From assembly GCA_043728745.1 (NCBI GenBank), contig JAYTMG010000772.1:1-51777 (forward strand): a stretch of DNA of 51,777 bases. The letters run 5' to 3'. Positions 4,597 through 49,837 of the stretch are shown in pieces (within the stretch, counting starts at the first letter, position 1; each line of letters opens with the position of its first letter). The notes below the pieces were generated by a model. It was given only the letters and a program-made list of their open reading frames with translations, was not told the DNA's origin and searched no databases. The DNA comes from Verrucomicrobiaceae bacterium. GTDB taxonomy: Bacteria > Verrucomicrobiota > Verrucomicrobiia > Chthoniobacterales > Chthoniobacteraceae. The position numbers and the translations under genes are program-made.

Positions 4597-4615
4597 CCAC
4601 GCCACATATTCCCGC

Positions 4616-4660: not shown

Positions 4661-4780
4661 CGCCATCCATACCGGAAGAAAACCCGACGGGCACCAAACC
4701 GATGTCGGGAACCGCTAAGCGGCTGTTGAAAAACGCCAGATTCTTACTTCCTTCTCTTACCTTAAAAACAGCAATTGAGT

Positions 4781-5270: not shown

Positions 5271-5410
5271 AAAGGGGTGTGACCGTTGCGTGATGTAGCA
5301 CAGTCCGTCCCGGCTGTGGGGCCAGTAGCCGTCCCGGCTGCTGTCGGCCCGCAACGGGCGGGACGGACTGTGCTACGGGCTACATCACGCAGCGGTCACA
5401 CCCATGCAAA
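5271..5410 (+). repeat. GC-rich palindromic (REP/MITE-like) element, full copy A
   Basis: The left arm ggtgtgaccgttgcgtgatgtagcacagtccgtcccg pairs with the right arm cgggacggactgtgctacgggctacatcacgcagcggtcacaccc, which carries a 7-nt insertion. The core contains three 'ccgtcccgg' words. Positions 5279..5365 recur at 51605..51691 with 2 mismatches. Confidence 0.75.
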
Positions 5411-5778
5411 GGTATGGCGTCGCACGGTTGTGATAACGGAGCGACGTTCAGAGGCGGCTCTGCTTACTGAACAGACGGCGTTTGCGACACTGAAGCCCTC
5501 TGCCAATCAGCTTTCCCGAGAAAACCGTGCGTGAGCCACTCCAGCACCGCCTCCAACCCCGGCTACGGTCGGGCAACCCTCCTGGTTTGGCGTATATGGC
5601 TCAGCCGCTGGACTTACCGTCGCCGCGGACACCCTCGGCGACTTTGTGCGCGATAGTTCCCGCGAGTCGATCGCCGGGGAAAAGCCTGACGAAAATAATA
5701 ACAGAGCCGTATGTTTTTAACGTTGTCAAATCCGAAGCGAGGCGTCACATCATTGAGGCAACACCTCGGACTGGAATT

Positions 5779-8700
5779 ATGGTTTTTATGAAAAAGGCGA
5801 AGATTACCCTCAAAAAGAGCGGGAAAATTGGCACCGAGGTCGCCTCGGTAGCGATTCTCCGTACGCAAATCGGGCCGGAGAATCTTGAGCCGCGCATCAC
5901 TTTTTCTTCGGACATCGGGCTTGGTTCGTTGTCCATCGCGGGGGGGCTGGCCCTCGCCATGACGGGCGGTTCCGATGTTTTCGATATCCTCCGGGTGGGC
6001 GATGCGCCAGAGGGCGGCGAGATCGTAAAGGTGAGAAACCTCACAAGTGGGTTGGAGCAGATTTTTAGTGGGGTGCGGTCGATTTCTGCGGCCGGTGGTG
6101 CGGGCGACGACGTGTTGGAGCTTTCCGGAAGCACGCTTGTCTCGCAGATCACGTTCAACGGTGGCGACGGGCTGGATACGATCGTCGGCCCGGCGTCGGA
6201 CAGCACTTGGGTCATCGACGGCGATGGCGCGGGTGCGATCAATGGCAACGTTCACTTTGTAGGAATCGAAAACGCAGCAGGCGCGGCAAATAACGAAGAC
6301 GAGTTTTCGTTTGCGGCGACTGGCTCGCTGGCCGGTGTCGTGTCCGGTGGCGATGGCGGCTATGATTCGCTCGTGGTGGATGGTTCGTTTTCGCACTCCG
6401 TGTCGTCGAGGGCGACCGGGCCGAGCTCGGGCTCGCTACAGTTTGATGGAAGACTTCTGACCTACGCAGGCTTGGAGCCCATCACGATTTCCGGTGTCTC
6501 GGATATTGTCATCGAAGGGACGAGCGGCAGCGATCTTCTCCTCGTGGAGAAAGACCCTGGCGATGCGACAAAGCTGCGCGTGTCGTCCACCAATGGTTCG
6601 ATCGAAAGCGTGTCGTTTTCGATTGCCGGGCTGACTTCGCTGCGGGTGGATGGCAAGGGCGGGCTGGATACGATCACGTTTGGCGGATCGTTCACGCTTG
6701 GTGCGGCCAGCATCGATGCGCTGGCGGAGGGGATTTTTGTCAATGCGGGCACGGTCATCAGCACACTGGGCGATGTCGTTTTCACCGCACTCGCGGATGA
6801 AATCGCGGTGACCGATGTTGCAAACGTGAGCACGAAAGCCGCGCTGATTCAGATCGGCGGCAAGATTTCCACGACGGGAAACATCACGCTCGATGCCGGA
6901 GTGGTGCGGGATGTGAATGTGGACTCCGCGTCGCTGTCGCTGGCGCTTGCTACAACTTCTTCCGCAAACATCGCTGTGCTGAGTGGCGCGACACTCGAAG
7001 CGGCGGCGCTCTCACTCGACGCGCACACGGGCGGTTTGGTCCGCGCCGAATCGCCGCTGAGCACAAGGATCGAGTTTACCGATACGGCGGTTGCTTCGTT
7101 GACCGATGCGACGATCACGGTGACCGGACTCACGGTCTCTGCGAAGACGAATACGCGGTACGAAAGCGTCGGGCGCGATGCGTACAACATCGTTTCCGGT
7201 GAGACGAAAGCGTATGCCGACGACGCCACGATCATCGCCGGAGCGGGCGGCGTTTCTTTCGTGGCAACAGACAGCACGGACTTGCGCGCGATTTCGCCGG
7301 AACGGGCGCTCTTGATTGCGGACGTCGCATTGCCGGTGGATATCGCGATTGGCGCAGCGCGGAATTCGCTGAGCCGGACCGTTGAAGCATATATCTCGAA
7401 CGGCTCTACGGTGACCGTGACCGGCGCGGATGTGAGCCTCTCAGCAGCGCGGGAATCCACCGCTGCAGCATACGTAAAGGCCACCGCGGTTTCTGCGAGC
7501 GTGCCGCTTCCGAATACGTTCTCGCTCAGCGCAGCGGGCACATTTACCTCGAACGTTTTGCGGGGCGATGTGCGCGCTTTCATCGCCGACAGCGCGGTGA
7601 AGACGCTCGTGAGCGGCGACATCTCAGTCGATGCCGAAGACGTGTTTGCGGCGAGTGCGGAGTCGGAGACGAGCATGAAATCGACGCTCAACCCGCTCGC
7701 AGCCAGCTCCGGCGCGGGAACGATCGGCGCGACACTCGCGTATAATTCAATCGGCTGGCTGCCGTCGAATGCGCTCACCGGCACGTTGAGCCAGATGCCG
7801 ATTGGCGAGTTGCTCGGCGATGAACTGGGGCTCGGCAGTGTCGAGGAACGTTCCAAAGTTCACGCGTTCATCGCGCGCTCCACGGTCGAGGCGAAAGACG
7901 ATCTTTTTGTCACTGCGACTTCCGAAGCGCAGATCAATTCCTACGTGGAAAACATCTCCGAAACGATCGCCCAAGCGTTGGTGAGCCCGATCGGTGGCGG
8001 TGCGAGCGCGGTGCTCGCGGTGAATAAAGTGAGCAGCGAAGCAAAAGCGTGGATCGATCAAACCGGCGTTGCCGCGCCTGTCGTGGTCGGCGGAGACCTC
8101 ACGATTTCTGCGGAAGATGCGGCGGGAATCTACGCGACAACGATCCTCGGAAACAGCGCGACGGTGGTCGCAGATGGCGGGCAACAAATCATCGAAGAGG
8201 AGGTGAACGCGGTCGATGCGACGTATTCCACAGACGATGGATCGAACGTGATTCTCTTCGGCGACACGGTGGAAATCTCGGAGACATTCCTCGACGAAGA
8301 TTTCACGACCGACGACGGCGCGCAGATGCTGGCGACTGGCGACGATATCCTCGTCGCGGCAGGATACGCCGACACGCGATGGACTTCGGAAGACGGGCGT
8401 CGCTTGCTCGTTGCGGGCGACAAAATCGAAGTCGAAGCGGGATATGGAAACGGAGGCGGCGACGCAGAATCCGCGCTCGTTTACCAATATATCGGCGCGA
8501 ACAAACGGATGGATCTCGGCGCGGTGGACTACTCCGACGCCACGAAGTGGGCGCTCGTTTCCGGCGATGACGATGTCGTGTATCGATACCTCGGCGCGCC
8601 GGGAACTGTGGACCTGAGTTTGCAGGATTATTCGGACGACACGAAGTGGCAGGTCCGTGGCGCGGATGGCGACGTGAAGTATCAATATCTCGGTACCACG

Positions 8701-11319
8701 GCGACGCTCGATCTCGGCACGCAGAACTATCTCGACCTCGAGTATTGGAAGCCCGTCGCGGACAATGTCACGTTCCCGGAAGGCCTGAATTTCAGCGCAT
8801 CGCCGGTGGCCGCGGTCGGCGGCGTGGTCGTTCAAAACGATGTGCGCAGCGATGTGGAAGCGTACGTGAAAAACGCGGTCGTCTCGACGGCAAACGTGAC
8901 GATTTCTGCGGTGGAAAGTGCGACCATCGCGGCGGCTATCGACAGCCTCGTGGAAGCAGAAGGCGGCAACGCATTTACCGGCGCAGGCGCCGTGTACGCT
9001 GCAAATGGCCAGATCGCTGCGAATATGATTCTCGGCTCCGCGAGGGCTCATATCACTGGCAGCGAAGTGACTGCCGGGGATGTCTCCGTCACGGCGAAAA
9101 ATACTTCGAGCATCGAGACGGCCACTGCTGGCGCGCTCACGAGCCCTGGAGAAAACCTCGGTGTGACTCTCGCGTTCAATAGCATCGGCTGGAAGATGGC
9201 GGGCTTTTTCTCGATGACGGTGGACACATTCTTCGGGGACGATGTCACGTTCGCGACGGAGCAGGCTTCCGCGACGAGCGCGTCGATTGATGATTCCGTC
9301 GTCTCCGCCACGGGCGACCTCGAAGTGACGGCGCTCAACGAAGCGACGATCCAGTCTGATGTCTCAAATTCCTCCAGCTCCGACTCCGTCGCAGTGACGG
9401 GCGGCGGCAGCAAGAGTCTCGGCCTCGTGGCGTCGAGCAATCTCGTAAATACGAACACAACTGCGACCGTCGGTTTCACGTCGGCATCCGCGACGAATAC
9501 GGTCACGGTCGCCGGTGCGTTCAGCGTTCATGCGGAAGACAGCGCGAGCATTTTTGCCGACGCACATCTCGAATCCATCTCTCGCTCGCTCAACGACGGC
9601 GGCATCACGATCATTTCCGGCGTCTTGGAGCGTGCGCTGACCGAGTATCAATACACGCCGCGCTCCGGAGTAAAAAATGTGGCGCAGGGCGAACTCGTTC
9701 GCACCGGCGAGGAAATCGCGTCGGACGGTGAGCCGCGCAATATCGTCTATCGCTTTCAGGGGACGGATGCGGAGGGCGTGGGGCGCGATCTCGCGACGGA
9801 AAATTACGCAAGCTCTCCGTTCTGGAAGAAGGTCGAGCTCGCCAATGCTTTCTCGGACCTCGCGGTCTATGGCGTCAGCGTCTCCTCCCCGTCGGAAGCG
9901 ATGGGTGTCGGCGGATTGTCTGTGCGCAACGATGTGCGCGGCCTGACGAGCGCGACGATCAGTAATGCAAAAGCCAGCGCCGGAGAATTGGCTGTGACTG
10001 CGCTGGAGACGGCGACGATTCGCGCGCTGAATGAAAGCGTCGTGAAGGCGCTCGGCGGGACATTCCAAGTGACTTCCGGCTCGGCTGTGGCGGTGAATTT
10101 CATGAACACCTCGAACCTCATTCTCAGCAGCGCTGAGGCGGTGATCGATGGCAGCGACGTGACGACGATGAGCGGGGATGTTTTGGTCGATGCGCAGAAC
10201 ACCGCCACGCTTTCAGCCGAGGTGAAGAGCGAGACGGACTCGAATGGTTTTTCCGTCGGGGTGACGCTTGCTTTCAACAGCATCGGCTGGGAGTCGCAGA
10301 ACATTCTCTTCAATGTTTCGGACGCGCTTCTCGGAACTTCCATCGGCAATCAGCAGCCTGCTTTCACGCGTGCTGCGATCACGGATTCGAGCGTCGAGTC
10401 GGCTGGCAAGATCAGCGTCACGGCGCTTTCCGATGCGAGCATCGACGCGGAAGTCTTGGGCTCTGCAAAGTCGGTGAAAGCAGCGGTGGACGGCGCGACA
10501 ACAGTCGCCATCGGTGCAGTCGTCGCTTTGAACCGCGTGAGCACGCTCACCGAGGCAACCATCGAATCATCATCGAGCATCGAGGCGCAGGCGGGCGAGC
10601 TGAAAGTCGCCTCGGAAAACACGGCGGAGATATTTTCGAATGTCAGCTCGCTCTCGACTTCGCTCACCGGGACAGGCGCGACAGGATTTGCGCTCAGCGT
10701 CGGCGCGAGTGCTTCGCGCAATGACATCAACAGCGACACGACTGCGCGCATCGACACCGTGGCAAATGCCACGGCGACCGGCGACATCACCGTAAGCGCG
10801 CTGGACACCTCCGTGATAAATTCGGGAGTCGAGGCGGTAGCGCTCGGCGGCTCGATGTCGGGCGGTAGCGGACTGGCGATCGCCGTCGGCCTCGCGCTGT
10901 CGCGCAATACGATCGAGAACGATGTGCGCGCGCTGATTTCAGACTCCGCGAATGTCGAGTCCACGGGCGGGCGCTGTCCGGCTGAGCGCGCTCAGCGACT
11001 CGGAAATTGCGGCGTCTTCGTCGGCTTCTTCATTCAGCGTAGCGCTCGCCGGAAGCACCAGCATCGCGGTGAGCGGCGCAGGCGCGGAGGCAATGAACAT
11101 CATCCTCGGAAACACATACGCAGCAGCACAAGGCAGTGCGTTGAAAAGCTTTGGCGATGTCTCGGTGACTGCCAGCAATACGTCGGAAATCGATGCGTTG
11201 ATTCTCGCGGTTGCTGCGGCTGGTTCAGGCGGATCGAACGGCGGAGGCGTCGCGCTCGGTGCTTCGGTTGCGTTCAATTCTATCGGCTACTCGCACGCTG
11301 GAACGAAGTCCCCGATTGA
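5779..11319 (+). CDS. Giant surface/secreted repeat protein, N-terminal segment. Coding sense ends near 10971; the rest is an out-of-frame tail.
   Basis: The likely start is ATG 5779 (or 5788), giving MVFMKKAKITLKK...ENLEPRITFSS. The 5527..5778 extension is compositionally non-coding. Motifs include GGDGLDTIVG, GKGGLDTITFGG, repeated (T/S)LA(F/Y)NSIGW and 'xGDhxVxAxxxxxI' beta-helix-like repeats. After ...ANVESTGG (10971) the frame becomes R/C-rich nonsense. Confidence 0.8.
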   Translation: MVFMKKAKITLKKSGKIGTEVASVAILRTQIGPENLEPRITFSSDIGLGSLSIAGGLALAMTGGSDVFDILRVGDAPEGGEIVKVRNLTSGLEQIFSGVRSISAAGGAGDDVLELSGSTLVSQITFNGGDGLDTIVGPASDSTWVIDGDGAGAINGNVHFVGIENAAGAANNEDEFSFAATGSLAGVVSGGDGGYDSLVVDGSFSHSVSSRATGPSSGSLQFDGRLLTYAGLEPITISGVSDIVIEGTSGSDLLLVEKDPGDATKLRVSSTNGSIESVSFSIAGLTSLRVDGKGGLDTITFGGSFTLGAASIDALAEGIFVNAGTVISTLGDVVFTALADEIAVTDVANVSTKAALIQIGGKISTTGNITLDAGVVRDVNVDSASLSLALATTSSANIAVLSGATLEAAALSLDAHTGGLVRAESPLSTRIEFTDTAVASLTDATITVTGLTVSAKTNTRYESVGRDAYNIVSGETKAYADDATIIAGAGGVSFVATDSTDLRAISPERALLIADVALPVDIAIGAARNSLSRTVEAYISNGSTVTVTGADVSLSAARESTAAAYVKATAVSASVPLPNTFSLSAAGTFTSNVLRGDVRAFIADSAVKTLVSGDISVDAEDVFAASAESETSMKSTLNPLAASSGAGTIGATLAYNSIGWLPSNALTGTLSQMPIGELLGDELGLGSVEERSKVHAFIARSTVEAKDDLFVTATSEAQINSYVENISETIAQALVSPIGGGASAVLAVNKVSSEAKAWIDQTGVAAPVVVGGDLTISAEDAAGIYATTILGNSATVVADGGQQIIEEEVNAVDATYSTDDGSNVILFGDTVEISETFLDEDFTTDDGAQMLATGDDILVAAGYADTRWTSEDGRRLLVAGDKIEVEAGYGNGGGDAESALVYQYIGANKRMDLGAVDYSDATKWALVSGDDDVVYRYLGAPGTVDLSLQDYSDDTKWQVRGADGDVKYQYLGTTATLDLGTQNYLDLEYWKPVADNVTFPEGLNFSASPVAAVGGVVVQNDVRSDVEAYVKNAVVSTANVTISAVESATIAAAIDSLVEAEGGNAFTGAGAVYAANGQIAANMILGSARAHITGSEVTAGDVSVTAKNTSSIETATAGALTSPGENLGVTLAFNSIGWKMAGFFSMTVDTFFGDDVTFATEQASATSASIDDSVVSATGDLEVTALNEATIQSDVSNSSSSDSVAVTGGGSKSLGLVASSNLVNTNTTATVGFTSASATNTVTVAGAFSVHAEDSASIFADAHLESISRSLNDGGITIISGVLERALTEYQYTPRSGVKNVAQGELVRTGEEIASDGEPRNIVYRFQGTDAEGVGRDLATENYASSPFWKKVELANAFSDLAVYGVSVSSPSEAMGVGGLSVRNDVRGLTSATISNAKASAGELAVTALETATIRALNESVVKALGGTFQVTSGSAVAVNFMNTSNLILSSAEAVIDGSDVTTMSGDVLVDAQNTATLSAEVKSETDSNGFSVGVTLAFNSIGWESQNILFNVSDALLGTSIGNQQPAFTRAAITDSSVESAGKISVTALSDASIDAEVLGSAKSVKAAVDGATTVAIGAVVALNRVSTLTEATIESSSSIEAQAGELKVASENTAEIFSNVSSLSTSLTGTGATGFALSVGASASRNDINSDTTARIDTVANATATGDITVSALDTSVINSGVEAVALGGSMSGGSGLAIAVGLALSRNTIENDVRALISDSANVESTGGRCPAERAQRLGNCGVFVGFFIQRSARRKHQHRGERRRRGGNEHHPRKHIRSSTRQCVEKLWRCLGDCQQYVGNRCVDSRGCCGWFRRIERRRRRARCFGCVQFYRLLARWNEVPD
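8203..8757 (+). other. Acidic/aromatic insert in the N-terminal beta-helix with three 'YxY(I/L)G...DLxxxxYxDxxxWxxV' repeats
   Basis: The three repeats are VYQYIGANKRMDLGAVDYSDATKWALV, VVYRYLGAPGTVDLSLQDYSDDTKWQV and VKYQYLGTTATLDLGTQNYLDLEYWKPV. A fourth, diverged copy is IVYRFQGTDAEGVGRDLATENYASSPFWKKV at 9736..9838. Confidence 0.5.
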
Positions 11320-14300
11320 AGTCGAGGCGGGTATCGAAAATTCGTCGGTCATGGCTGGAGGCCAACTGACCGTGGAGGCGCTCGCCGATCAGATTTTGCG
11401 CGCGCAGGTTTTTGCAGGCGCTGCCGCGATCACGGCTGCGGGCGGCACGGGGCTCACCGGAGCGGGAGCCGGCGTCTATTCGCAAAACAGGATCGCCGCG
11501 AATGTGGTTGCGCAGATCGATGGCGATGGAACTGCGGGAATCTCGGTGACGGCTTTGACGGTGCGGGCGCGCGACATTTCGGAAATCTCGTCGATTGCCG
11601 GTGCCGCAGCGCTTTCTGCGGCGGTGGGCGGAGCCGGAGCTGGCGCGCTTTCTGTTGGCGTGGCGGTCGCGGAAAACTCCATAGACAACGAGATCGAAGC
11701 GTCCATCCGCAATGCGGACAGCGTCGAAAGTCTGGGCAATATTTCGGTGACCGCGAGTGAGACGGCATCCGTTTCGACGATTTCCGCAGCGGCATCTGTT
11801 GCCGCGGCGATTGCTCCGATTGGCGTCGCGATTAGCGGCGGCGCAGCGACCTCGAAGAACACGATTGCGGGTTCGGTCCGCGCATCGATTGAGGACTCGG
11901 ACGTGACGGCCGCTGGCGCTGTGAGCATCACAGCCGGCACCACATCGACGTTGACTGCGGACATCGCGAGCGTCGCTCTCGCCGCCGGGCTCGTGGGCGC
12001 GGCAAACGGTTTGTCGCTCGCAAATAATACAGTCACCAATGTCGTCTCGGCGTTCATCGATTCATCGAGCGTCACGGCGGACGGCGGCGACATCACCGTC
12101 GCCGCAAATTTGAATCCGACGCTCACGACAAGCTCGCGGGTCGGCGTGCTCACTGCGGCGATAGGGACGAGCTTTGCGGCTGCGGAGTCATACTCGAATC
12201 TCAACGGAACTGCGGAAGCATACATCAACGCGGCGACGCTTTCGGCAATCGGCCATGATGTGAATGTGACGGCGGATTCCATTTCCAGCGCAGCGCCGAT
12301 TACGCAAGGCGCGGGTGCTGGTTTGGCCGCCGCGACTGCGCTGCTCGCGCAGGCAAATATCGGTGGCACGACCCGCGCATTTGCGACGGGGCTTTCGAGC
12401 GTCACTGCGGGCGGCTTTACGATCGCGGCGACGGATGCGACGACAGCATCGCCGGAGACGAAAGTGAACGGCGTTGGCGGAGTTTCCGGCGCGGGAGCGA
12501 TCTCGCTCACTCGCATCACTCGCACGACGGAGGCATACATCGGCGCAGGAGCGGACATTTCTACCGGCGCGACTTCGGTGAATGTCACAGCGACTTCCAC
12601 GACTACGGCGAACGGAACCACGGTCGGCAACTCGGCCGCAAATGTCGCAATCATGGCACTGCTTGTGGATGCAGAAATCAGCGGCAGTACGAGAGCCTAC
12701 GTCCAGGATGGCGCGCGGATTTCCGCAGGCGGATTGTCAGTGATTGCCGATGCGACGAACAGCGTCACGGCTCCGGCAAGCATCACGGGCATTGGGTTTG
12801 CAGCGCTCTCCGGAGTGAGCGTTACTGCGAAAGATTCAAGCGCCGTGCTCGCATTCATTGGCAGTGAATTTGGCCCGGTGGGGACGGCGGCAAGCATCAC
12901 CATCACCGGCGGCGATGCAGTGGTCCGCGCGAAGACGAAATCGGATGTCTCGGCGACTGTGGAAGCAGTGGGCGTGAGCTACGGACTTGCAGCGACGCTT
13001 TCGGAAATGACGGCGACCAGCGCGCATACGACGAGCGCATTTATCGGGAAAGACGCGACGGTTTCTGCGACTGCGGGGAGCGTGAACGTCGAGGCGCTTT
13101 CGGACAATACGGCAAACGCGGCGAGTTCCTCAAAGAGCGTTGGCGCGGTTCTCGTGGGCATCACCGAACTCACCGCAAACGCCGACGGGGCGACAAACGC
13201 GAAGGCGCTTGGCAACGTCACAGCAGCGGCGATTTCGGTGCGCGGTGAAGGAACGAGCGAGGCGGCAGCGGGCGCGAGTTCGCTCGGCGGCGGAGCAGTT
13301 TCACTGGCGCTTTCGACGGTGAATGCGAGCGCGTCGCCGTCCGTCTCTGCGACGGCAGGCGGCAATCTTTCGGCGACCGGCAACCTCACCATCGAAGCAA
13401 TCGCGGGCAGCGAGGCGGATGCTTCGTCGAAGAGCTTCGGCGTGGGCGGGCTGGCGATTACTTCGCTGACTGCAAATGCGTCTATCGAGCCAACGGTGAC
13501 AACTTCTGTGCAAAGCGGAGCATCGCTGGAAGCAGGCGGCAATCTCTCCATCGTCGCACGCCACGGTGCGGTAGGCTCGGCAAATGGAAGCGCTACGGCG
13601 ACTGCGACAGGAAGCGGCGGCGGCGGCATCGCGGTGAGTGGAGCGACCACGAGCGCCAGCTCGGAGCCGGTCGTGAGCACAACCTTCGGCGCAAACGCGG
13701 TCATCAAAGGATTCAATGTAGTCGTCGATGCGACATCGCTCGGACGCGCAATCAGCGAGGCCACTGGAACGAGCGTCGGCATTTTGAAACTCGGCACCAG
13801 CAGCGCAAACGTGCTCGTGGACAATACGGCATTTGTGAACGTGGACGGCGGCGCAATGTTCATCGGTCGCAATGATGTGACGGTGCGTTCCACCACGGAC
13901 ACGGAGTCCGACGTGCGGACAGAAAGCGACGGCGGCGGGCTTGTGAGCATCGCGAATGTGAATTCGTCGGGAACGATGAATTACAGCTCCAAGGTTACTC
14001 TCGGAAATGGCGTCGTGATTTCCACGGTGAACAATCTCACCGTCGAGTCGCTGAGCGATGTCGATGGAACGGCGGAGGGAGAGTCGGACTCCAATGGATT
14101 TGCAGGTGGTGCGACGGCCCGGGCTTCGATGGCGGTGATCGGCGAAACCATCACCCTCATCGGCGACGGGTCGCATTTGACCGGCGCAGGCGTGACGCTT
14201 GGCGCAGTAGTCTCCACGCTCGATCTTTCGGCGACTGCAAATGCGGACCTTTCGGCGGCAGGCGGAAATGCCAACGCATTCACCACGGCGACATTTACAG

Positions 14301-23300: not shown

Positions 23301-26300
23301 GCGGCAAAGTGGGAACAATGACAACGGCGGATTTGAAGTTCTTCGACATCCGCGATTTCAATCTCACCACGGGCAGCGCGGATGACCTCGTGACACTTGG
23401 CAGCGCGGGTCTAACGGCATACGGACTGCGCAATTTCAATGTGACGACGGGCGGCGGAAACGACACGTTCACCACGCAGACGAACCTGCTCAAGCCGACG
23501 GCGGCGGGCACTTTCCTGCCGAGTGTTCCGTTCACTTTTGGCTCCACGATCCCGGCGAATACGCCGATGGCGCGGGTGCTCGGCGCACTCACTTTTGATG
23601 GCGGCACGGGCACGAATACGATGGCGGCAGTCTTTGACGGCGACTGGACGGTGACGGCAAACGCGCTCATCGGTACGAAGGACAACGCGGCGGTGACGCT
23701 GACGAATGTCTCCAACGTGACGCTGACCGGCGGCGGGTCCGTCAATCGCTTCACACTCTTGGATTGGTCAGGCACCGCGACGCTCGATGGCGGCGGCGAC
23801 TCCGACCAATTTATCGTTCACGCTGCGGCGCTGAACGGGACAAAAATCTCCGACACGACTGGCAGCTTGGATTCACTCACGGTGCTCGGCACCGCTGGGA
23901 TTGATACGTTCCAAGTGAACGCCGGAAGAGTGCGGCTCAACAATACTATGGACTTGGATTATACAAACGGCGGCGTGGACTTACTCAATATCGCAGGAGG
24001 GCTCGGGGACGACATCCTGACCGTAAACGACAGCTCGGCGGGCTTCGTCTTCCTTGATGGCGAAGATGGCTCGGATACTTACCAAGTCTTCGCTGGTGCG
24101 ACGTCGGCAAAGGTCTTTGCGCACGACAGCGGGCCGCTTCCTTCCGACACGGCGAACGTCGATAAACTGGAACTGCCAGTGAGCAGGATTCCGGGGCTTG
24201 ACTCGACCTTCACGGTCGGCGCGAAGTTGGTGACTTTCGACGAAACAATCGAAGACATGGGCACGGCGGAATTGGTGTTCGATCCAATCGTCACCGCGAC
24301 GGGCAGCGCAGGGCCGGATAACATCGTTCTCAGCGGCAGCACGCTGACGATTAACGGCGTCCCGCTCGACATCTCGATGATCACCGAACTGACAATCGAC
24401 GCTGCCGATGGCGATGACATCATCACCATCGATGCGTTCAGCGCGCCGCTGCTCACAAAGCTCATCATCAACGGCGGCAACGGTAAGGATAAAGTGATCC
24501 TCACTTTGCCTCTGCCGACCGGCCCGAGCTACGCGCTCAATGGCGGCGCGGACGACGACATCCTCGAACTCCACACCGGCTCCGGCAACGACATGCTCAC
24601 GCTCGGCGCGACATCGGTGCAACTCGACGGCTCGCCGAGCGCCAACTTTACGGACTTCTCATCGTTCGTCGTGGATACGGGCGATGGCGCGGATGTGGTG
24701 ACGCTCGATGGCGTGACCGGACCCGTGACTGTCAACACCGGCGACGCCGACGATATTGTGAAATACGGTGCTCTCGTTGCGCGGGCGACGATCAACGCGG
24801 GACGTGGAAATGATCGCGTGATTCCGCTCTCACTGGCGTCTGGCGGCTTTGGCCTCACGTTTAATGGCGGCGATGGAAATGACTACTTCGAGGGCACCAC
24901 GAGCGACGACATCGCGGACGGCGGACTCGGCGAAGACACGCTGCTCGGCGGCGATGGCGCGGATACGCTGCTCGGGGGTGCAGGGAATAATTTCCTCAAC
25001 GGTGGTGGCGGCGCAGACAGCATCACGGGCGGCAGCGACTCGGATACGATCATCGGCGGCGCTGGCAACGATGTCTTTAATGGCGGCGGCGGCGGCGACC
25101 TCTACACATTCGCGGATGGCTGGGGCGCGGATTCGTTTACCGGTGTGAACTCGGGCTCGGGTGCGTTTGATTTCTCGGCAGTCACGACGGCGATTACGTT
25201 CGCATCGAGTGGAACGACCATCACCGCGACTTCGGGGGCAGACAGCATCACGTTTAGTGATTCGCAGCCGTACATCACGTCGGTCTCCGGCGGCGCGGGC
25301 GACGACATTTTTAATGTCACGAATACGGGCGGAACGCCGGTCGTGCTCAATGGCGGCAATGGCTCGGACCAATACATCGTCACACTCGGCGCGCTGAATG
25401 CAGCGGTGCAAATCAACGACACAGGCACCGTGGGCTCGGACACCGTGACCATCGAAGCGCCTGCTCCCGGCTACACGATCGACGTCCGCCAGACATCTAT
25501 CGTGGCGACGAAAGCGGGCCTCGCGGCGCAGGTGATTAATTTCGGCACGGGCATCGAAAACATCACCGTGAACGCGAAGGCAAACGGCGGCAGCACCGTG
25601 AATGTCGCGGAGGCGATTTCGTTCACCGGCAACGTGCGCCTCGCGGCGAATCAGGCGTTTGTGAACAACACGATCAACGCGGGCGGCATCCGCATCGACT
25701 CCGCGCTCGGGCTCGACCTCAACGCGGACATCAACGCGCGGAACAACGGCAACGTGAGCGTCTTTGTGGATGGCGGCGCGATTACGCTGAATGAGGACAT
25801 CAATTCTTCATCCGGCAATTCATTCACCGGCGACGGCTCGGGCACGATCCAGCTCGTGACGAATGGCGGCGCAATCCTCGCGGGCAACAGCACGGCGATG
25901 ATTCTCGCGGGAAGTGGCGCACTGCTCCTGCGCGGCTCGAACGGCAGTATCGGCACGCTCACCACGCCGATTCGCACGCAAGTCGGCACGCTCGCTGCGG
26001 CGACGACTGGCGCGGGCACGCCGATCAATATCTACGAACTCGACGGCCTCATCGTGGGCACTGTCGCGGGCACGCCGGGCATCACCAGCACGGGCGGCAC
26101 GGTGCAGATTTTCAACGACGCAAACGTCCTCAGCGTGCAATCGCGCATCGCGGTTGCGGGCGACCTGACGCTCACTTCGGACCAAGTGGACATCGCCGCA
26201 GACATCGCGAGTCCCGGCAGCAACTTCTTCATTCGTCCCGAAGGACTCACGACGGTCATGGCGATTGGCGATGGAGTCAGCGGCGTCTTCGTGCTGAGCC

Positions 26301-29300
26301 AAAGTGAGATCAATCATTTCGTGAACGGTTTCCTTTCGATCCAGATCGGCCAGGAACTCGGGCGCAATCTCATCAACCTCGGCAATGCGTCGTTTGTGGA
26401 CCCCACACTGATGCAGAATCCGGTGCTCGGCGGGCACATCAATCAGACCGGCATCCTGAACGTCACGGACAACGGTTCGTTCACAATTTACGGAAGCGGG
26501 CACACGACGGAACTGAACAACCAAAACGTCGGCGGGAACATCGACATCGTGGACAGCGCAGTCGTCCGCGAGGGCGAGACGGTGACGCTCACGAGTCTCG
26601 CGGGCAGCATCAATATTAACTTCGACGTGGACGGCACGCTCGGCGGCGCGGACGAAACGCTCGTGCTCAATGCAGCGGGCGACGTGACGGTGAAGGGTGC
26701 AATCGGCAGCGAAGCACAGCTCGGAACGCTGCGTATCGCAAACGGAACGAACGTCCGCTTTGAGGGATCGGTGAACGTCAAAAACCTTATCATCGAAGAC
26801 GGCGCGACCTTTACCGTGGATGGAACGCTGAACGCGCAGAGCATCGCAGTTTCTGGAGTCGCGGCGGCGACATTTAAGAGCAGCGTGATTCTCACGACCG
26901 GGCTCACAACCACTGGCGGTGCGCTTTCCACGATTGTCTTCGAGGGACAAATCAGCGCGCCGAGTGTTTCGGTGACGGCGATTCAGCTCGCGGATTTCTA
27001 TCAGCTTGTGGATGTCACCACGGCGCTAAACGTCACGACGACGAGCGCGACGGGCGACATCGTTTTCCGCCAGCAGGTGAACTCGCACGCTGGAAATATC
27101 ACGGTGAATTCGCAAGACGACGTGACCTTTATCGGCCCCGTCGCGGGCGCAAATCTGACGGTGACGCGTGCCGATGCGACTTCGTTTCAAGGGCCGCTGG
27201 AGCTTACGGGCGCGTTCGTGCGGACGCTCGGGACGGGCACGGCGAGCTTCGCGCTCTTCGCGGCGGCTTCGGCAAATATCAACGCCACGGGGCTCGTCCT
27301 CGGCGGCACGACGACGCTCACCGGCGCGGCGGGCTTGGTGGCCGGGCTGGGCGCAAATGGTGCGTTCACGGCGGTCGGCGCGGTGTCCGCAAATGCGGGA
27401 CCGCTCAACATCACCGGCAAGACGATCAATTTCCAATCGGGCGTCAGTGCGGCTTCGTCCACGCTGAGCGCGATCGAGTCCATCACCGTCGCAAACGCAT
27501 CGCTCTTCACGACGACGGGTGCGCTTTCGGCGACGACGACGAGCGGCACGGTGGGTGAAATCAAGTTCACTGGACCGACAACGGTGGGCGGAGTTGCGAC
27601 GTTCACCACGCCGCGTGCGCTCACTTTCCAAAACACGCTCAACGTCACCAGCTCGCTCACGGTCGCAGGCGCGACGAGCGAGCAGTATCAAGGCGCAGTC
27701 GTGGTCGGCGGGGCATTTGTGCAGACTTCCACGGTGACTGGCGCGACGAGTTTCTCATCCACGCTGCAAGCCGGCTCGCTGGATTTGCAGGCTGGTTCGC
27801 TTGCTTTCACAGGCGACGTGAACAGCTCGGGCAACGCGACTTTAACTGCGAAAGCGGGTAGCATCTCGGCAGCGGCAAACGTCGTGGCGACGGGGACGCT
27901 GACGATGAGCGCGACGACGAATGTCGGGCTGCTCGGCGCGACTTCTGCGAGTTCCATCGGTGTCACTGCGGTCGGCACAATCACGGCAGGTGTCGGCGGA
28001 ATGACCACGACGAGCGGCGCAATCTCGCTCACGACAACCGGCGCAGTCGCTGGCAACTCGGTCACGCTCAACGGACTCGTTGACGCGGAGACCGCGCTGA
28101 CCATCAACGCAGCGCGCGGCGTACTCGCGACGAATACAATCAACGCGGCATCGCTAAACGCGACCGGCACGGCGCTGACGTTCAACAGTCTTGTGACCAC
28201 GACCGGCGCAACGACGCTCGGCAGCACTGGCGCAATCAATCTCGTCTCCGGCCTTACGGCGGGCGGCAACTTGCTCGTGACGGGCGCAAGCGCAGTGACG
28301 CTCGGCGACGCGGTCACGGCAAACACAGTCAACATCACGGCTGCGAACACGATCGATATTTCCGTCGGCGGTCTTGCTTCGACGGTAGGCGGCATCACGC
28401 TCGCCACGACAGCGCCGGGTGCCGGAAACTCGGTGAGTGCGCTCGGACTCGTGGATGCGAGCACGGCGCTGACCATCACGACTCCACGCGCGGTTTCGCT
28501 CAATGCGGTCGATGCGGCTTCGGTCGCTGTGAGCGCGGCGAGTATCAATTTGTCATCGGTCGTCACGGCGACTGGCGGCGTGACGTTGACGGCGGATGCG
28601 TCCGGAAACATCAGCGCTGGCTCTACGATCACAGCGGGCGGGGCATTGAACATCAGCCGCGCAAAAGCGGTGACGTTCGAAGGACTCGTGAATGTCGGCT
28701 CCGTCGCGATTGGCAGCACTTCCATCGAGACAGTCTCCATCGGTGCGGGTGGCATGACTGCGGCGGGCGATTTGATTATCAACACGACGGTTGCCGGGGT
28801 CGGCAACGGCATCACCTCGCAAGGCACACTGACGGCGGGCGCGAACAATCTCGTCAGCCTCGTTTCGGTGCGCGGCGTGGACATCAGCGGAGCGATCAAT
28901 GGAAGCGACCTCACAGCGAGCGGCACGACGGTGACGCTCCGCGGAGTGCTCACGCTCGGCGACGACGTAACGCTCAGCGCAACGGGCGCACTCGCAGTGA
29001 ATAGCGACCTCACAGCGGGAGGCGACCTCGTCGTCTCGCAGGCTGGAGCGCTCGCATTTGGCGCGAAAGTGAACGCAGCAACGCTGACGGTATCGAACGC
29101 CGGAAACACGATTTTCTCCGGGCAGACGACGATCACAAATGCGGCGACGCTAACGCTGACCGGCGACCTCACGACGGCGGCGCAATTTGCAGTCGGCGGC
29201 GCGCTGAACGTCCCGACGGTGCGCGACGTTTCATTCGGCGGGCTCGTCACGGCGGCTTCGGCATCCATCGGCTCCACGAGCGCACGCACCATCTCGGTGA

Positions 29301-32300
29301 ACAACGGAGGCGTGCAGACGACGGGTGCTTTGACGCTCCGCTCCACGGATGCGCTCGGCACGATTAATATCAACGGGCCGATTGCTGCGGCGAACGGCGC
29401 GACAACGCTGACGGCAGCGGGTGTGGTGAATTCCGTGGCAGGCATCAGCGGTGACACGGTGACGGTCACGGCTTCCTCGATGTCGCTCGGCGGCGCGGTG
29501 AATGCGGACGCTGGAAATGTGACGCTGAATACGACCGTCGCAAATGCGGGCAGCATCATCGTCGGCGGAGTCGTCACCAGCACGGGCTCGCTGCTCGTCG
29601 GCACCACGACTGCTCCGAAATCGGCGGCGCTCAACGGCGCGCTGAATATCGGCAGCGACCTCACAGTTCGTGCGGACGAGACGATCTCGACGGGTGCGCA
29701 AGTTACCGTGGTTCGGGACATTTCGTTTACAACGACAAGCACTACGGCGGGCGAAGTCCGCGCGAGTGGAACGCTCAGCGCAGGACGCAACTTCCTGCTC
29801 GATACCTCGCGCAACGCGACGTTCCTCGCGCCAGTCACAGTTGGCGGAGCGGCGACCATCACGAAGGCGGCGGCGCTGCAATTTGACGGCGCGCTGAATG
29901 TCACTGGCGCACTCACGCAGACGGCGGGCCTCACCAGCTCGCGCTTCGCATCCATCAGCGCGGTATCCATCGCGATTGATAGTCCGACAATAGCCGTGAC
30001 GAACGCGGTGACGGCGACAAGCGGCGCGGCGAACTTCAACGCGGCAGCGAGCGGCAAAGTCACTATCGGCGGCAATATGAGCATCGCTGGCGCGCTCACC
30101 GTGCCTCGCGCGGATGAAGTCATCCTCAGCGGAAACGTCAGCGCTTCCACGGTGAATGTCGGCGCGACGAGCGTGCGCACGATCAGCTTCGGCACGAACC
30201 TCACGGCAACCACGGGCGACGTCACGCTCGATGGAAATGGCGGCCCGATCACCGTCGCGGGCACGCTCACCACGCCGACTGCACTCAGCATCCCACGCGG
30301 CACGGTCATCACGCTGAACAGCGCAGTGAGCGCAGCAAGCGCGACGATTGCGGGCGGCGCATTCACGGCGGGAAATGACATCACGACCACGACCGGTGCG
30401 CTCACTTTTACCACGACGGGAAATGTCACCGTCGTCGGTAAAACAACCGCCGCACAGACGCTGAGCATCACCGGAGCAGCGGACGTGAACCTCACCGGCG
30501 CAGTCAGCGCGCGCAGCTTCACGCTCGACGCAAACTCGTTCCTCGCGGGCAGCACTTTTGCCACGACGAATGGCAACGCAATTCTCACGACGGATGCGAA
30601 TATCCGCTTCGTCGGCGTGGCCAATGTGAACGGCGCTCTGACCGTCACGACGGCGCTCAACACCACGTTCCAAGGCCAGCTCACCGTCACTGGTGCGTTG
30701 ACGCAGCAAGACGGATTTGGCGCGACGCGCTTCGACGGGCCGGTTTCTGCGAGCGACATTTTTGTCCGCACAGCACAGCAGGTCTTCGCGGGAAATGCGT
30801 TCATTGCAAACACGGGCAACATTTTCATTGAGTCCGACGAGATTGATTTCTTCGGCGGCACGAATGCCGTGCAGGGAACTGCAGCGCTCACGCTGCGGCC
30901 TTACCTCGCGGCGACTTCGATCGACATCGGCTCGCCGACGCCGACCGGTTTGCTCGACCTTTCCGATGTGGACCTGAACGCGCTGCGCGATGGCTTCACT
31001 CAAATCACCATCGGGCGTTCCGAAGATGGCACGGGCGCGATGCTCATCGGCAGTAGTGTCTTCAAGGACAACGTAGCGTTCCACGCAGGCAGCATCACGG
31101 TGGAGAGCAATACGCTCGTCGGCCAAGTCGTCACCACGCCGGAGAGCCTCACTATGACAGCGCGGACGGGCTCAATCGTCACAAACGACGATATTTTTGC
31201 GAGCGATGTGAACTTCACTGCGGTGGACAATGTTGCGATCAATAATCGTTTGGAAGTCAGCGGACTCCTCGGGATAAATCCCCTTATCTCGGTAAGTGCG
31301 GGCATAGACGATACGGGTAGCATCTTCATCAACGGAACGGTTCTCACCACCAATCATCCCAATAGCACGCTGTTCGCCAGGACAGGTAATGTGGCTGGCG
31401 ACATCAGAATTACCGGCACTATCGGAGGGATCGGCCTTGCTATACTCATGGCACCTAACGGTGAGATTTTGCAGACCTCCGGCAATGTGAGCGCGAGCTT
31501 TCTTGATACGGTGGCGGAAACGGGCATCACGCTTCTCACGACTGCGGACCACATTTCGGCGCGCGTCACGGGCACGGGCGACATTTACATCACAGACACC
31601 GGCGCTGCGGCGGGGCACTTCCTTGACCTTGGCTCGCGGGCGTCTCTGAACGACGGGCTCTTTACGGCAGACGGCGACATCACGGTGTATGCAAACGAGA
31701 GCATCAATGCGTATCGCGTCGAAGCGAATGGCGACGTGACCATCGAGTCCGGCGCTGAGATTTACGTCGATGACGTGACCGGCGACGAAGCGGTGGTGCG
31801 TGGAACGATCCTGCTCGTCGAAGACCGCGACTCGAACGGCGAGAACATGTTGTTCGACGGAAACGTGCGACTGCTCCGTGACATCACGCTGAACAGCGAC
31901 GGCGGCAATATCACAATCACGGGCGCGGTGAACGCCACTCCCGGCCAGCACTTTAGTCTCACGATCGAGGCAGGCGGCGGCGACGTGACCATCGGCAATG
32001 GAATCGGCTCGGTGACGCCGATTGAGTTCCTGCAAGTGAATGATGCGGGGCTCTTCACGCTCGCCAGCGGTTCGCGGGTGGAAGGCGATACGGAGATCAA
32101 CGCATCCGCGATTGCGATTTCCGCACCACGCGGCTCGATCGTCTCGACGATGGGCGGCGCGCTGCGGTTGCTGCCAGTCGATAGCGAAGCGGCCATCGAC
32201 ATCGGTTCGCCTGCAAATGGCAGCGCGGAGTTTTCCTTGAGCGATGCGGAACTCGCGGCGCTCGGCGACGGCTTCGGCGGCATCCAGATCGGGCAAGTCG

Positions 32301-33556
32301 GCGGCAGGCACAACGTGAAGATCGAATCCGCACGATTCCTCGATGATCTCGATATCTACGCGGACAACGTGAGCCTACTAACGTCGTCCATCGCGCAGGG
32401 AGTGAACGGTCTCTCGGCGGTGAATGGCAGCGACGACAACGACGTGCGCATCCACGCAATCACCTCATTCACGCAAGGGCGGCGCGCGGGCATCGTCGCG
32501 GGGCGGAACGGCGACATCGTCATCACCGCAAACGAAATCACCCTCGACCCTGCGAGCACCGGGCTCATCCGAGGCTTCGGCGAATTACTCGTGCAACCAC
32601 ACGACGCGACGCGCTCCATCACGCTCGGCGGCGCTGGGCCAGCGGGCGCTTTTGACCTCACGGCCAACGAGTTTAGCGCGCTCGGCGATACATTTTCCCG
32701 CGTCATCATCGGGCGGGAAAATGGAGCGCACGTCATCAATATCACCCGCGACCTAAAGCTCCGCGACACCACGCTCATCCGCACGCCGATGAACGGCGGC
32801 TCCGTGCTCATCGGCTCGGACCTTTCGTCTGTCACGGTACAGACGCTCGGGCGCTCGGACAGCCTGCGTATTGAATCTGCGGGCGACCTCATCATCGGTG
32901 CAAACCTCAAAGTCGTCGGCAGCGGCAGACTCGACTTGCTCGCCGACGTCGATGGAATCAACGGGGGCAACCTCAGCTTTGGCCAGCTCTTCGCGACGGA
33001 CAAAGTGACCCGCACAATCAGCAGCGAAGCGGGTGCCATCCGACTGGAAGGCTTTCACATCGCGCTCGGGCTGGAGGATGCCGCATCGAAGAAACGCGGT
33101 GCAGTCAGCGTCACCTCGAAGACCGGTGACATCACAGCGCAGAGCGGCAGCAGCTTCGCCTTTAGCCATCTTAAAAGCAGCATTTCCACGGGCGGCATCG
33201 CAAGCATTCTCGGCACCGCGCATTTGGACAGCGCATCGTTTGGCGGCGGCACGATCTCCGGAAAACGCGGAGTAAACATCAGCGGCTTCGGAGCCATCGA
33301 AACGGTGGGCACGAAGATCAAAAGCGAGCAACGCATCACGCTCGAAGCCGTCTCCGTGACGAACCGAGCGAAGACCGCAATCACCAGCACGCTCGCCGAC
33401 ATCCAAGTGCTCGGCGATTCCTTGATGGGCCTCGCCATCATCGAAGGAAAAGCCGCGCTCAAAGCGAAGACATCCATCCTCCTTTCCGCAGCCGATGTGG
33501 TGGCCGATCCAAAGGCCATCCTCAAAGCGAAGACCGTCACAATCACCGAACTCTAG
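10952..33556 (+). CDS. Giant surface/secreted repeat protein, C-terminal segment (7,534-codon ORF; biological continuation from about 10973)
   Basis: The frame is uninterrupted with high GC3. It contains beta-helix-like A/T/S/G/V repeats, GGxGADT(I/L) modules, about 20 FG-GAP-like blades, a GGxGxD nonapeptide block, and four 'L(R/Q)P..I(D/T)(I/L)G....LSxxE(L/F)xxLxDGFxxIxIG' modules. It ends ...[10 protein letters not shown]. Confidence 0.85.
   Translation: [7534 protein letters not shown]
10966..10975 (+). other. Frame disruption (one extra nucleotide) joining the two giant ORFs
   Basis: Frame 1 reads ...aat gtc gag tcc acg ggc ggg (N V E S T G G) up to 10971. From 10973 frame 2 reads gct gtc cgg ctg agc gcg ctc ([14 protein letters not shown]). 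That continuation matches neighbouring repeat units such as VESAGKISVTALSDASIDA. The site is a gggcgggcg run. Confidence 0.75.
19130..23221 (+). other. FG-GAP / integrin-alpha-like beta-propeller region (about 20 blades) inside the giant protein
   Basis: Repeated blades follow the pattern FG.(A/S)V(A/D)I.G....(V/I)GAP........GA(A/V)YV(F/Y). Examples are [17 protein letters not shown]...[23 protein letters not shown]...[23 protein letters not shown]...GGVYVY and [17 protein letters not shown]. Confidence 0.75.
24863..25111 (+). repeat. RTX-type (hemolysin-type Ca-binding) GGxGxD nonapeptide repeat block
   Basis: The block reads [83 protein letters not shown]. Confidence 0.8.
26940..30880 (+). 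other. Low-complexity beta-helix-like tract of about 1,300 aa (A/T/G/S/V/L/N/I pseudo-repeats)
   Basis: The sequence is a degenerate run of units such as ...[31 protein letters not shown]..., ...[36 protein letters not shown]..., ...[29 protein letters not shown].... I saw almost no charged or aromatic residues. Confidence 0.55.
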
Positions 33557-36333: not shown

Positions 36334-37011
36334 TTGCAAGACGCCCTCGGATTCTGCGTTAATCACCGGGTGCCGCTCGCTTGTTTTATTTTGCTATTCG
36401 GTCTTCTGCCATCGCTTGCGTTCGCTCAACTAAAGTGGGCTCAGCCATCTAAAGATTTCGTGCGTTTGACCACCGATTTGAAAACCGAAGTCGAGTTCGA
36501 GTTTTCTAATCCGGGCACGACTCACGCGAAGATTGTGGACATCAAATCCTCATGCGGCTGCACCACTCCTGAGCTGCAAAAACGCGAGTACGCTCCCGGC
36601 GAAAAGGGCTCGCTTCGAGCGACGTTTGTCTTTGGCGGCAGGACTGGCCAGCAGCGAAAAGTCATCACCGTTCGCACGGCGGATGGCCTCGTACAACTGC
36701 TCGAACTCAATGTCGCAATCGCAAAGCCGATTCACGCCGAGCCGGGGCTCGTGTTTTGGCGCGTGGGGGATGTCCCCGATGCCAAGCGCGTGACCTTGAA
36801 AGTCCCCGACGGCATCGTCGCGCGAGCCACCAATGCCACTTCAAACAATCCCCGCATCAGCGTCCGATTGGAGACTGCTCCCGATGCGACTCAAGTGCTG
36901 AGCATCTCGCCCGCAGACACGTCCAAGCGCGAGTCCGCAGAGCTGACCGTGGAGACGAATTTTCCGCCGGATGCCCCGAAATCGCTCACAGTATTCGTCC
37001 GCATCAAGTGA
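36334..37011 (+). CDS. DUF1573 domain-containing protein (secreted)
   Basis: The family-diagnostic pattern is EFEFSNPGTTHAKIVDIKSSCGCTTPELQKREYAPGEKGSLRATF...GQQRKVITV. The signal peptide is ...PLACFILLFGLLPSLAFA|Q. The start is TTG 36334 or the in-frame GTG 36370. Confidence 0.9.
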   Translation: MQDALGFCVNHRVPLACFILLFGLLPSLAFAQLKWAQPSKDFVRLTTDLKTEVEFEFSNPGTTHAKIVDIKSSCGCTTPELQKREYAPGEKGSLRATFVFGGRTGQQRKVITVRTADGLVQLLELNVAIAKPIHAEPGLVFWRVGDVPDAKRVTLKVPDGIVARATNATSNNPRISVRLETAPDATQVLSISPADTSKRESAELTVETNFPPDAPKSLTVFVRIK

Positions 37012-49812: not shown

Positions 49813-49837
49813 GCGGTTCAAGAATCGTGCGCCGCCG

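Follow-up and report, generated by a model that had tools for sequence, protein, structure and literature searches.

Giant proteins with an N-terminal LExR or LEPR leader are the largest gene products of many bacteria of the Planctomycetes-Verrucomicrobia-Chlamydiae (PVC) superphylum and of some other bacteria. For planctomycetes, a putative export signal has been given as RRLxxExLExRxLLA or LxLExLExRxxP (Studholme 2004, as quoted in PMC8567305), and in Tuwongella immobilis the motif LxLExLExRxxP occurs on 52 proteins, including 8 of the 10 longest (4,016-10,566 aa) (PMC8567305). Two Chlorochromatium proteins of 20,647 and 36,806 aa begin with a 24-aa LEPRxLL domain, are expressed and reach the envelope, and their authors describe Cag_663/665 as lacking known transport signals (bioRxiv 10.64898/2026.03.19.712371). 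Proteins of at least 10,000 aa have been reported to be frequent in PVC phyla (bioRxiv 10.1101/2023.11.21.568195). On this literature, the leader would direct the export of the LExR class. Here we analyse a locus in a 51,777-nt stretch of a Verrucomicrobiaceae bacterium (assembly GCA_043728745.1, contig JAYTMG010000772.1, positions 1 to 51,777), hereafter the window. Its forward strand carries a giant gene (5779..33556) that is interrupted by a single surplus base and followed by a gene for a 634-aa partner with a leader of the same kind. Judged by leader and repeats, the giant is a member of the recognised class of LExR/LEPR-leader giant surface proteins of PVC and other bacteria. A sequence-only reading of the window had called genes of this size rare, a view that the Tuwongella and PVC figures do not support.

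As sequenced, the giant gene is divided between two overlapping forward-strand open reading frames (ORFs), ORF A (5527/5779..11319, frame 1; 1,846 codons) and ORF B (10952..33556, frame 2; 7,534 codons), which share 367 nt. Deleting one base anywhere in 10968-10972 (ACG GGC GGG CGC) merges them into a single ORF of 9,258 codons from ATG 5779, which is also the start picked by metagenome gene callers. The merged product has a mass of 921 kDa, a pI of 4.24 and no cysteine. The sequence-only reading had proposed removing a base at about 10972 and expected about 9,260 codons, in close agreement with this result. Up to the junction, frame 1 reads '...ALISDSANVESTGG', its repeat-like part ending in '...NVESTGG', and afterwards it degenerates into RCPAERAQRLGNCG...; past the junction, frame 2 takes up the repeat grammar again as 'AVRLSALSDSEI...' / 'AVRLSALSDSEIAASSSASSFSVALAGS...', and the in-frame junction peptide of the merged protein is STGGAVRLS. 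The out-of-frame tail of ORF A (10972..11319; 115 codons plus a stop, ~116 aa) contains 10 Cys and 35 R/K/H residues, and because the merged protein has no cysteine at all, this tail is clearly foreign and non-native.

Several sequence properties run across the junction. The phase of the GC content at third codon positions (GC3) follows ORF A up to ~nt 11000 and ORF B beyond it, and frame +1 stays open for 7,539 codons, with 104-467 stops in each of the other frames over the 27.8 kb. Self-comparison in 100-aa tiles revealed that the junction-spanning units at aa 1695-1796 align with aa 1951-2050 (E 4e-14, and reciprocally), and the pairwise alignment crosses the junction at the cost of just one gap, one residue long. 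The 53-aa repeat model LktA_tand_53 (NCBIfam NF012206; curated cut-off 50 bits) scores 189.5 bits over 12 stretches in ORF A and 73.7 bits over 7 stretches early in ORF B. An AlphaFold2 model of merged aa 1341-2440 is likewise unbroken at the junction, where the predicted local distance difference test score (pLDDT) is ~93 (tile residue 390). The repeat alignment, the LktA_tand_53 matches on both sides and the GC3 switch uphold the earlier claim that the two ORFs are pieces of one frame with a repeat grammar running across their junction. Read at the sequence level, ORFs A and B are one ancestral gene, interrupted by a 1-nt insertion at 10965-10977.

All 14 distant relatives (27-42% identity) run through the homologous stretch as one uninterrupted ORF. 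Their sources are freshwater, marine and sediment metagenomes, with Burkholderiaceae, Gammaproteobacteria and other metagenome-assembled genomes among them, and several start with '...FEPLEPRILLSAD' or '...KMQFEPLEPRILLSAD' and are still open past 6,579 codons. The first 1,000 aa, used as a query, retrieved distant relatives only (29-44% identity), none of them giant, and the window protein itself was not among the matches listed. The sequence-only reading had reasoned that orthologues split into two genes would speak against a single gene; the 14 relatives are unsplit, at long range only, and a 600-aa junction-spanning query against genome and metagenome contig scans found no close orthologue over the junction, the best matches having 27-58% identity in their best aligned segment.

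The merged protein opens with the Lys-rich start MVFMKKAKITLKKSGK and the leader LEPRITFSSDI (aa 1-45; motif aa 35-45, nt 5881..5913), with ENLEPRITF at aa 33-41, within the first ~60 residues. LEPRITFSS is a variant of the catalogued leader, with ITF in place of xLL, and the leaders nearest to its window form LEPRITFSSDIGLG are LEPRIVFSVNIGAG and LEPRTVFSVNIGAG, those of the relatives P0140 and P0143. A hidden Markov model (HMM) of the motif, built from 12 relatives, found its top match among 387 window ORFs at aa 34-47 of the giant (E 0.006) and its third-best window match at the start of the downstream partner gene. Among the homologues from the first-1,000-aa search, P0001, P0002 and P0013 are named LEPR-XLL, pass the corresponding NCBIfam model NF012209 (LEPR-XLL or 'LEPR-8K', a 24-aa N-terminal model with a near-invariant LEPRxLL after a basic stretch) and also match LktA_tand_53. 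Furthermore, L026 aa 32-828 is collinear with giant aa 3-784 (28% identity), as is L030. Other secreted proteins of the window carry ordinary Sec signal peptides instead. The giant's N-terminus had been described as non-hydrophobic, which does not fully hold, as the stretch IGTEVASVAIL ahead of the LEPR motif reaches a Kyte-Doolittle (KD) value of 1.76.

This arrangement closely resembles that of the LEPR-XLL giants that combine NF012209 with NF012206, found in metagenomic Burkholderiaceae, Gammaproteobacteria and marine sources and, for Chlorochromatium, in Cag_663/Cag_665. The likeness comprises LEPR...S(A)D after a basic N-terminus, collinearity over the first ~800 aa, LktA_tand_53 supra-repeats, YxYxG inserts and the lack of a recognised transport signal. 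The LEPR-XLL giants are single ORFs of many thousand residues, whereas the window protein reaches its full size in one frame only after removal of one base; they carry LEPRxLLSA where it has LEPRITFSS, are related to it over aa 1-2060 only, and their partial sequences retrieved do not contain its propeller centre or its C-terminal 3,000 aa. The planctomycete giants of Tuwongella (PMC8567305) share with the window protein the PVC superphylum and a leader type found on the longest proteins (4,016-10,566 aa). In Tuwongella the leader also occurs on many smaller secreted proteins, and here it occurs on the 634-aa partner, whose LExRIAPA matches LExRxxP. The planctomycete giants are reported to carry Integrin-beta and Calx domains, whereas the window protein carries LktA repeats, FG-GAP_2 and repeats-in-toxin (RTX) sequences. 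Its host probably belongs to Verrucomicrobiota, to judge by homologues named as Chthoniobacteraceae, Verrucomicrobiota and Gemmataceae, and a neighbouring DUF1573 gene agrees with a PVC origin of the contig.

The partner gene (33571..35475, forward strand; 634 aa, pI 4.63, 0 Cys) begins 14 nt after the giant's stop. Its product starts with MRNQHSTRPSIEALETRIAPAG and carries the leader IEALETRIAPAG (LETRIAPAG), with IEALETRIAPA at aa 11-21. The family comprises more than 780 homologues without any Pfam domain, those with named hosts coming from Chthoniobacteraceae, Verrucomicrobiota and Gemmataceae. Its N-terminal consensus is (I/L)ExLExRIAPA...TATWTDVDGDxVTLK and its C-terminal end ...RYNLAGTLDVRVFEF, and 116 of 120 homologues have a loose [LIVM]ExR/K pattern among their first 80 residues. 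At four loci, L021, L022 (4,978-aa giant), L024 and L038 (the 5,559-aa giant P0143), a giant relative is followed after 13-20 nt by a partner homologue, and the same giant-partner order recurs on a Chthoniobacteraceae contig with P0136 and P0042, a fifth syntenic case. The more distant partner homologues P0045 and P0054 have no adjoining giant. Structure prediction yielded a confident all-beta solenoid with a disordered leader (pLDDT 92; predicted template modelling score, pTM, 0.89), for which Foldseek returned no PDB match at E<1. We considered and rejected a TpsB or outer-membrane barrel identity for the partner, given its soluble-looking beta-solenoid and LExR leader. The exact 634-aa product has no database record, probably through being called with a different start, and we found no description of a conserved partner with the same kind of leader in the accessible literature.

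Two side observations concern this gene pair. Relative to the closest relative, L024, synonymous divergence (dS) is 0.43 for the giant's C-terminus (30767..33553) and 1.2 for the adjacent partner gene, a discordance that suggests recombination within the cassette or saturation effects. At L036 (GCA_031389825.1, JANMSW010000023.1, 3143..9121), the distant partner homologue P0045 is adjoined by a short SecA-like gene (663 aa) and by two further genes with membrane-fusion-protein-like BSH_CusB matches, one with an additional faint Peptidase_M50 match and the other with GAF. This SecA-like and membrane fusion protein (MFP)-like trio is a candidate lead for the export route of the LExR leader.

Domain analysis of the merged protein (all nucleotide coordinates on the forward strand) bore out the module order proposed from the sequence, namely GGDGxDT modules, repeats, blades, a GGxGxD block and a second arm, by Pfam, NCBIfam and self-comparison. 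Following the leader, GGDGxDT-type modules (aa 46-340, nt 5914..6798) are collinear with the N-termini of LEPR-XLL proteins. The first arm (aa 341-2700, nt 6799..13879) is built of LktA_tand_53-type repeats and contains a 364-aa supra-repeat at aa 1000-1740. Also present in this arm is a YxYxG....DL....Y.D..W motif of ~45 aa in 4-5 copies (aa 880-1000 and 1290-1350, nt ~8400..8800 and 9650..9830), which recurs in distant relatives such as L010 and has no Pfam match. A beta-rich stretch without a family match (aa 2701-3600, nt 13880..16579), with ~100-aa repeats at aa 3250-3500 like parts of the second arm, leads to a second block of GGxGxDT modules (aa 3600-4440, nt 16577..19099).

The centre of the protein consists of ~21 FG-GAP_2 blades (aa 4451-5815, nt 19130..23224), or three seven-bladed propellers' worth, a multiple of seven as in the FG-GAP propellers of integrin-alpha type. 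Pfam recognises FG-GAP_2 (PF14312) in 6+3 stretches (E 3.6e-57 and 8.8e-16), with the count of ~21 obtained by motif; about 20 such blades at 19130..23221 had been counted earlier. After blade 10 lies an internally duplicated 180-aa insert without a family match (aa 5040-5220, nt 20897..21439). Should the blades fold into three propellers of seven, this insert would be located inside the second, recalling the position of the integrin alpha-I domain. To our knowledge, three tandem propellers with an insert after blade 10 are not a described adhesin layout.

Beyond the blades, a third GGxGxD block (aa 5830-6560, nt 23267..25459) includes a canonical RTX beta-roll (aa ~6360-6480, nt 24884-25225), which matches HemolysinCabind and the PDB structures of CyaA, a lipase and serralysin, in agreement with the GGxGxD block, taken to be Ca-binding, that had been placed at 24863..25111. 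The GGxGxD modules of aa 45-340, 3600-4400 and 5830-6560 are mutually alike in self-comparison. The second arm (aa 6600-8330, nt 25577..30769) consists of degenerate T/A/G/S/V/N repeats, and the C-terminal region (aa 8330-9258, nt 30767..33553) contains three 'LRP..IGSP...LSD.E...L.DGF..I.IGR' modules and the conserved end ...DPKAILKAKTVTITEL, keeping the repeat pattern up to ...TVTITEL. Within it, aa 8337-8884 show homology to the shaft part of TpsA proteins, which carry a two-partner secretion (TPS) domain (P0155, E 2.5e-22; P0139). The proposed hmmscan check recovered FG-GAP_2 and HemolysinCabind and no other Pfam family, including in eight sub-regions at E<=1; sub-threshold matches to FliC and SH3_10 were disregarded. 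A PDB sequence search matched the RTX beta-roll only, and most of the chain is without a Pfam or PDB match. The first-arm model (aa 1341-2440; mean pLDDT 71, pTM 0.79, with pLDDT 80-97 over tile residues 330-990) shows strands of 20-23 residues joined by tight turns of 3-9 residues with a period of ~55-60 aa, at odds with the beta-helix that had been proposed for the N-terminal arm.

The distribution of relatives along the chain reveals a mosaic. Relatives of the proteobacterial LEPR-8K type match aa 1-2060 only, whereas an exhaustive search with the C-terminal 929 aa identified five full-length relatives, P0140-P0144 (5,291-6,571 aa), each a single ORF with an LE(P/S/D)R start. These five are mutually homologous over their full length and share with the window protein only the C-terminal third (aa 6271-9258, nt 24590..33553; 33-48% identity), comprising the RTX block, the second arm and the C-terminal region with the same C-terminal end. 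Partial orthologues of this third, on ERZ28573520 scaffold_8639, JGI 3300079869 Ga0654464_0020317 and the 33-kb contig of P0289, reach 73-88% identity. P0140 and P0143 have a leader of the same type, LEPRIVFSVNIGAG, and the P0140-P0144 family has the partner gene 13-20 nt downstream. By BLAST these proteins lack LktA-type repeats and FG-GAP blades like those of the window protein, which is 2,700-4,000 aa longer; their N-terminal ~2,500 aa are without homology to its first 6,270 aa. No counterpart of aa ~2060-6270, including the blade centre, was found among the retrieved relatives. The earlier statement that the protein could not be assigned to a described adhesin family therefore stands in part: Pfam, NCBIfam and PDB place the whole protein nowhere, but its first third has LEPR-XLL architecture and its last third is common to a family of 5.3-6.6 thousand aa. 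We take the protein to be a clear case of modular exchange: its leader and its C-terminal third are of verrucomicrobial type, its LEPR-8K arm is of proteobacterial type, and its centre of three putative propellers is unique.

The frameshift site itself (10965..10977, forward strand; ACG GGC GGG CGC TGT) holds one surplus base in the middle of a repeat unit and reads GGCGGGCG, where a counterpart without the lesion would read GGCGGCG. The exact 1,846-aa product of ORF A, including its tail, is encoded in contigs of three assemblies: k141_8524154 of ENA ERZ27315199 (56.2 kb), scaffold_2204 of ENA ERZ28573545 (which reaches window nt ~27023) and a Logan contig of SRR23617303 recorded in two samples. 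These contigs are 99.99-100% identical to the window, and one differs from it by a single nucleotide polymorphism (SNP) in an intergenic position, 5298. This near-identity means that the assemblies may not be independent, which would suit a sequencing or assembly artefact at ~10970, common to the same or related read sets, in a gene that is in fact intact. Such an artefact would also fit an ORF B that is open for 7,539 codons without a second lesion, the entirely non-native look of the out-of-frame tail, and a ratio of nonsynonymous to synonymous substitution rates (dN/dS) of 0.17-0.20 in the C-terminal part downstream of the frameshift, measured against orthologues at 88% and 73-81% amino acid identity. 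We nevertheless consider an artefact unlikely: the same indel is present in all three contigs including both Logan samples, one assembly differs from the others by a SNP, the site has no homopolymer longer than a G3 run, and the giant gene is free of tandem repeats and of direct repeats above 85% identity or 60 nt that could mislead assembly. The frameshift is more likely a genuine mutation of the population. If real, it must, on the sequence evidence, be very recent, because ORF B has acquired no second lesion and the C-terminal part retains a dN/dS of 0.17-0.20, and the gene has probably been inactivated by it in the sampled population. An apparently fixed frameshift upstream of an ORF B that is still open, is under purifying selection and is assigned its own ATG (11372) by gene callers could alternatively mean that the split is functional, through programmed +1 frameshifting that yields low levels of full-length protein, or through two polypeptides, a leader-bearing N-terminal fibre of 1,730 aa and a leaderless protein of 7,400 aa. 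This is very improbable, as the shift lies mid-repeat, ORF B would lack the leader carried by every relative, the ~116-aa tail would bring 10 Cys into an otherwise Cys-free protein, and the relatives examined are all single ORFs; programmed frameshifting in particular was rejected, no known +1 slippery or stall motif being seen at ACG GGC GGG CGC. The differing sets of relatives of the N- and C-terminal thirds would also be expected if the 27.8-kb ORF were a chimeric mis-assembly of two or three giant genes via shared repeats. That explanation has next to no likelihood: two assemblies are concordant across the aa 6271 boundary (scaffold_2204 up to nt ~27023), the gene is even in GC3 and composition, its leader belongs to the type seen in the C-terminal relatives, and repeat-driven mis-assembly was rejected on finding no tandem repeats and only short, diverged direct repeats. 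Because the assemblies agree at this boundary and repeats able to mis-join are absent, we read the mosaic as evolutionary module exchange rather than an assembly chimera. A single-base lesion of this kind hides a 9,258-codon gene from annotation: such a gene may be recorded as a pseudogene or as a pair of genes, and its protein may then be missing from protein databases or appear there in pieces.

How such a protein might leave the cell was the other point to be weighed. The earlier remark that no cognate transporter is in view holds: Pfam searches of the other window ORFs, and precomputed Pfam matches for the 4.4 kb that the 56-kb contig used for this check adds upstream, revealed no ABC transporter/MFP/TolC set, no TpsB and no autotransporter barrel, nor were secretion genes found beside the syntenic relatives in flanks of up to 10 kb. 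Type Vb secretion (T5b) exoproteins such as Fusobacterium necrophorum LktA and FHA-like TpsA proteins share LktA_tand_53, the shaft of aa 8337-8884 and a filamentous all-beta build with the giant. They use a Sec signal, a TPS domain and TpsB, and LktA is exported by T5b, whereas the giant has a LEPR leader instead; the TPS domain (PF05860) matches no part of it, its C-terminus has no Pfam match to an autotransporter beta-barrel, and the window contains no POTRA/ShlB gene. The likeness to RTX adhesins of type I secretion systems (T1SS), such as LapA, MpIBP and SiiE, lies in an acidic, Cys-free chain with Ca2+-binding-type GGxGxD repeats and repetitive extenders presenting ligand-binding domains, although the giant's extenders are not Ig-like. 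A classical T1SS adhesin with its ABC/MFP/TolC genes elsewhere in the genome would account for these properties, for the canonical RTX beta-roll, the missing classical signal peptide and an extreme C-terminus conserved among close relatives, and TolC-like and SapC-like genes adjoin the LEPRxLL giants of Chlorochromatium. It is, however, improbable: in T1SS adhesins the RTX repeats lie next to the C-terminal signal, whereas here they are internal (aa ~6360-6480 of 9,258), ~2,800 aa from the C-terminus; no T1SS gene is present on the 56-kb contig or beside the syntenic relatives; what the class conserves is a leader at the N-terminus, found also on a 634-aa partner without RTX repeats; and Cag_663/665 are stated by the preprint authors to lack known transport signals.

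The explanation we favour is a single ancestral gene for an exported all-beta surface fibre of an uncultured PVC bacterium, most likely of Verrucomicrobiota, with a LEPR-type leader, to which, taken as a whole, we assign a probability of roughly 0.75. The product would be a 0.92-MDa acidic, Cys-free, almost all-beta extracellular or cell-surface adhesin-like fibre, and its lack of cysteine, its pI of 4.24, the RTX beta-roll, the FG-GAP_2 blades and the TPS-protein shaft homology of aa 8337-8884 are points in favour of an extracellular character. On the most economical reading, the giant and its partner would leave the cell by a leader-recognising route distinct from a linked T1SS, a type V secretion system (T5SS) or Sec-TPS. 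Outside the cell, Ca2+ bound by the GGxGxD/RTX modules would rigidify the chain, and the two long beta arms might act as spacers for a ligand-binding part made of three integrin-alpha-like propellers. The partner may form, together with the conserved C-terminal third, a common family module that is probably cell-proximal or assembly-related. A bolder form of this proposal, which we put forward only tentatively and hold to be rather unlikely in full, is that the giant and the 634-aa partner are a conserved two-gene cassette using an undiscovered PVC export or assembly pathway, that the LktA_tand_53 arm is a long-hairpin antiparallel beta fibre without a solved analogue, and that the middle propeller bears its insert in an integrin alpha-I-like position. 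If true, the cassette would provide a handle for finding the export machinery of a leader unexplained since 2004.

Several points count against the favoured explanation. The single-gene state rests on paralogy within the protein and on relatives at 27-42% identity, a close orthologue being lacking, and with the frameshift the protein may not be produced at all in this organism. NF012209 does not match the window motif even at E<=10, and the weak hydrophobic stretch ahead of the motif leaves a Sec-type signal conceivable. The first arm is provisionally modelled, from a shallow and poor 13-row alignment, as a long-hairpin meander and not a classical three-sided beta-helix. Foldseek searches with this model, as with that of the partner, found no match in PDB at E<=0.001 (TM <=0.17), and the arm model had one match in BFVD (7.6e-5, TM 0.06) that is not meaningful, which leaves the arm without a structural analogue in either database. 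The export route, the surface location, Ca2+ binding, the adhesin role and any interaction of giant and partner are likewise suppositions.

In the surroundings of the gene pair, scanning the window yielded no Rfam or tRNA match, and searches for promoters and terminators near the two gene ends returned nothing that exceeded shuffled sequence. Upstream of the giant gene, in a gap of 480 nt, lies an inverted repeat (5300..5372) with 13-nt arms, acagtccgtcccg ... cgggacggactgt, immediately adjoined by the sole inter-assembly SNP (5298). Further upstream lie a 955-aa secreted protein (1729..4596, forward strand) with SBBP/delta-60-type propeller repeats and a DUF7453 / NxxGxxAF 'choice-of-anchor' C-terminal region and, just outside the window on the same contig, a 550-aa FG-GAP protein. 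Downstream, a second giant gene (37807..49821, reverse strand; called as 3,989 aa) encodes a protein with CARDB, fn3, Big_13, CarboxypepD_reg, Glucodextran_B and DUF642 domains. This second giant has an ordinary Sec signal, so that the two giant surface-protein genes of the contig differ in their export signals. Just upstream of this second giant and on the same strand is a gene for a 419-aa secreted protein without a family match (49838..51097, reverse strand). The remaining neighbour (36334..37011, forward strand) encodes a small secreted DUF1573 / HYDIN-VesB-like Ig protein, of a family first defined in Rhodopirellula.

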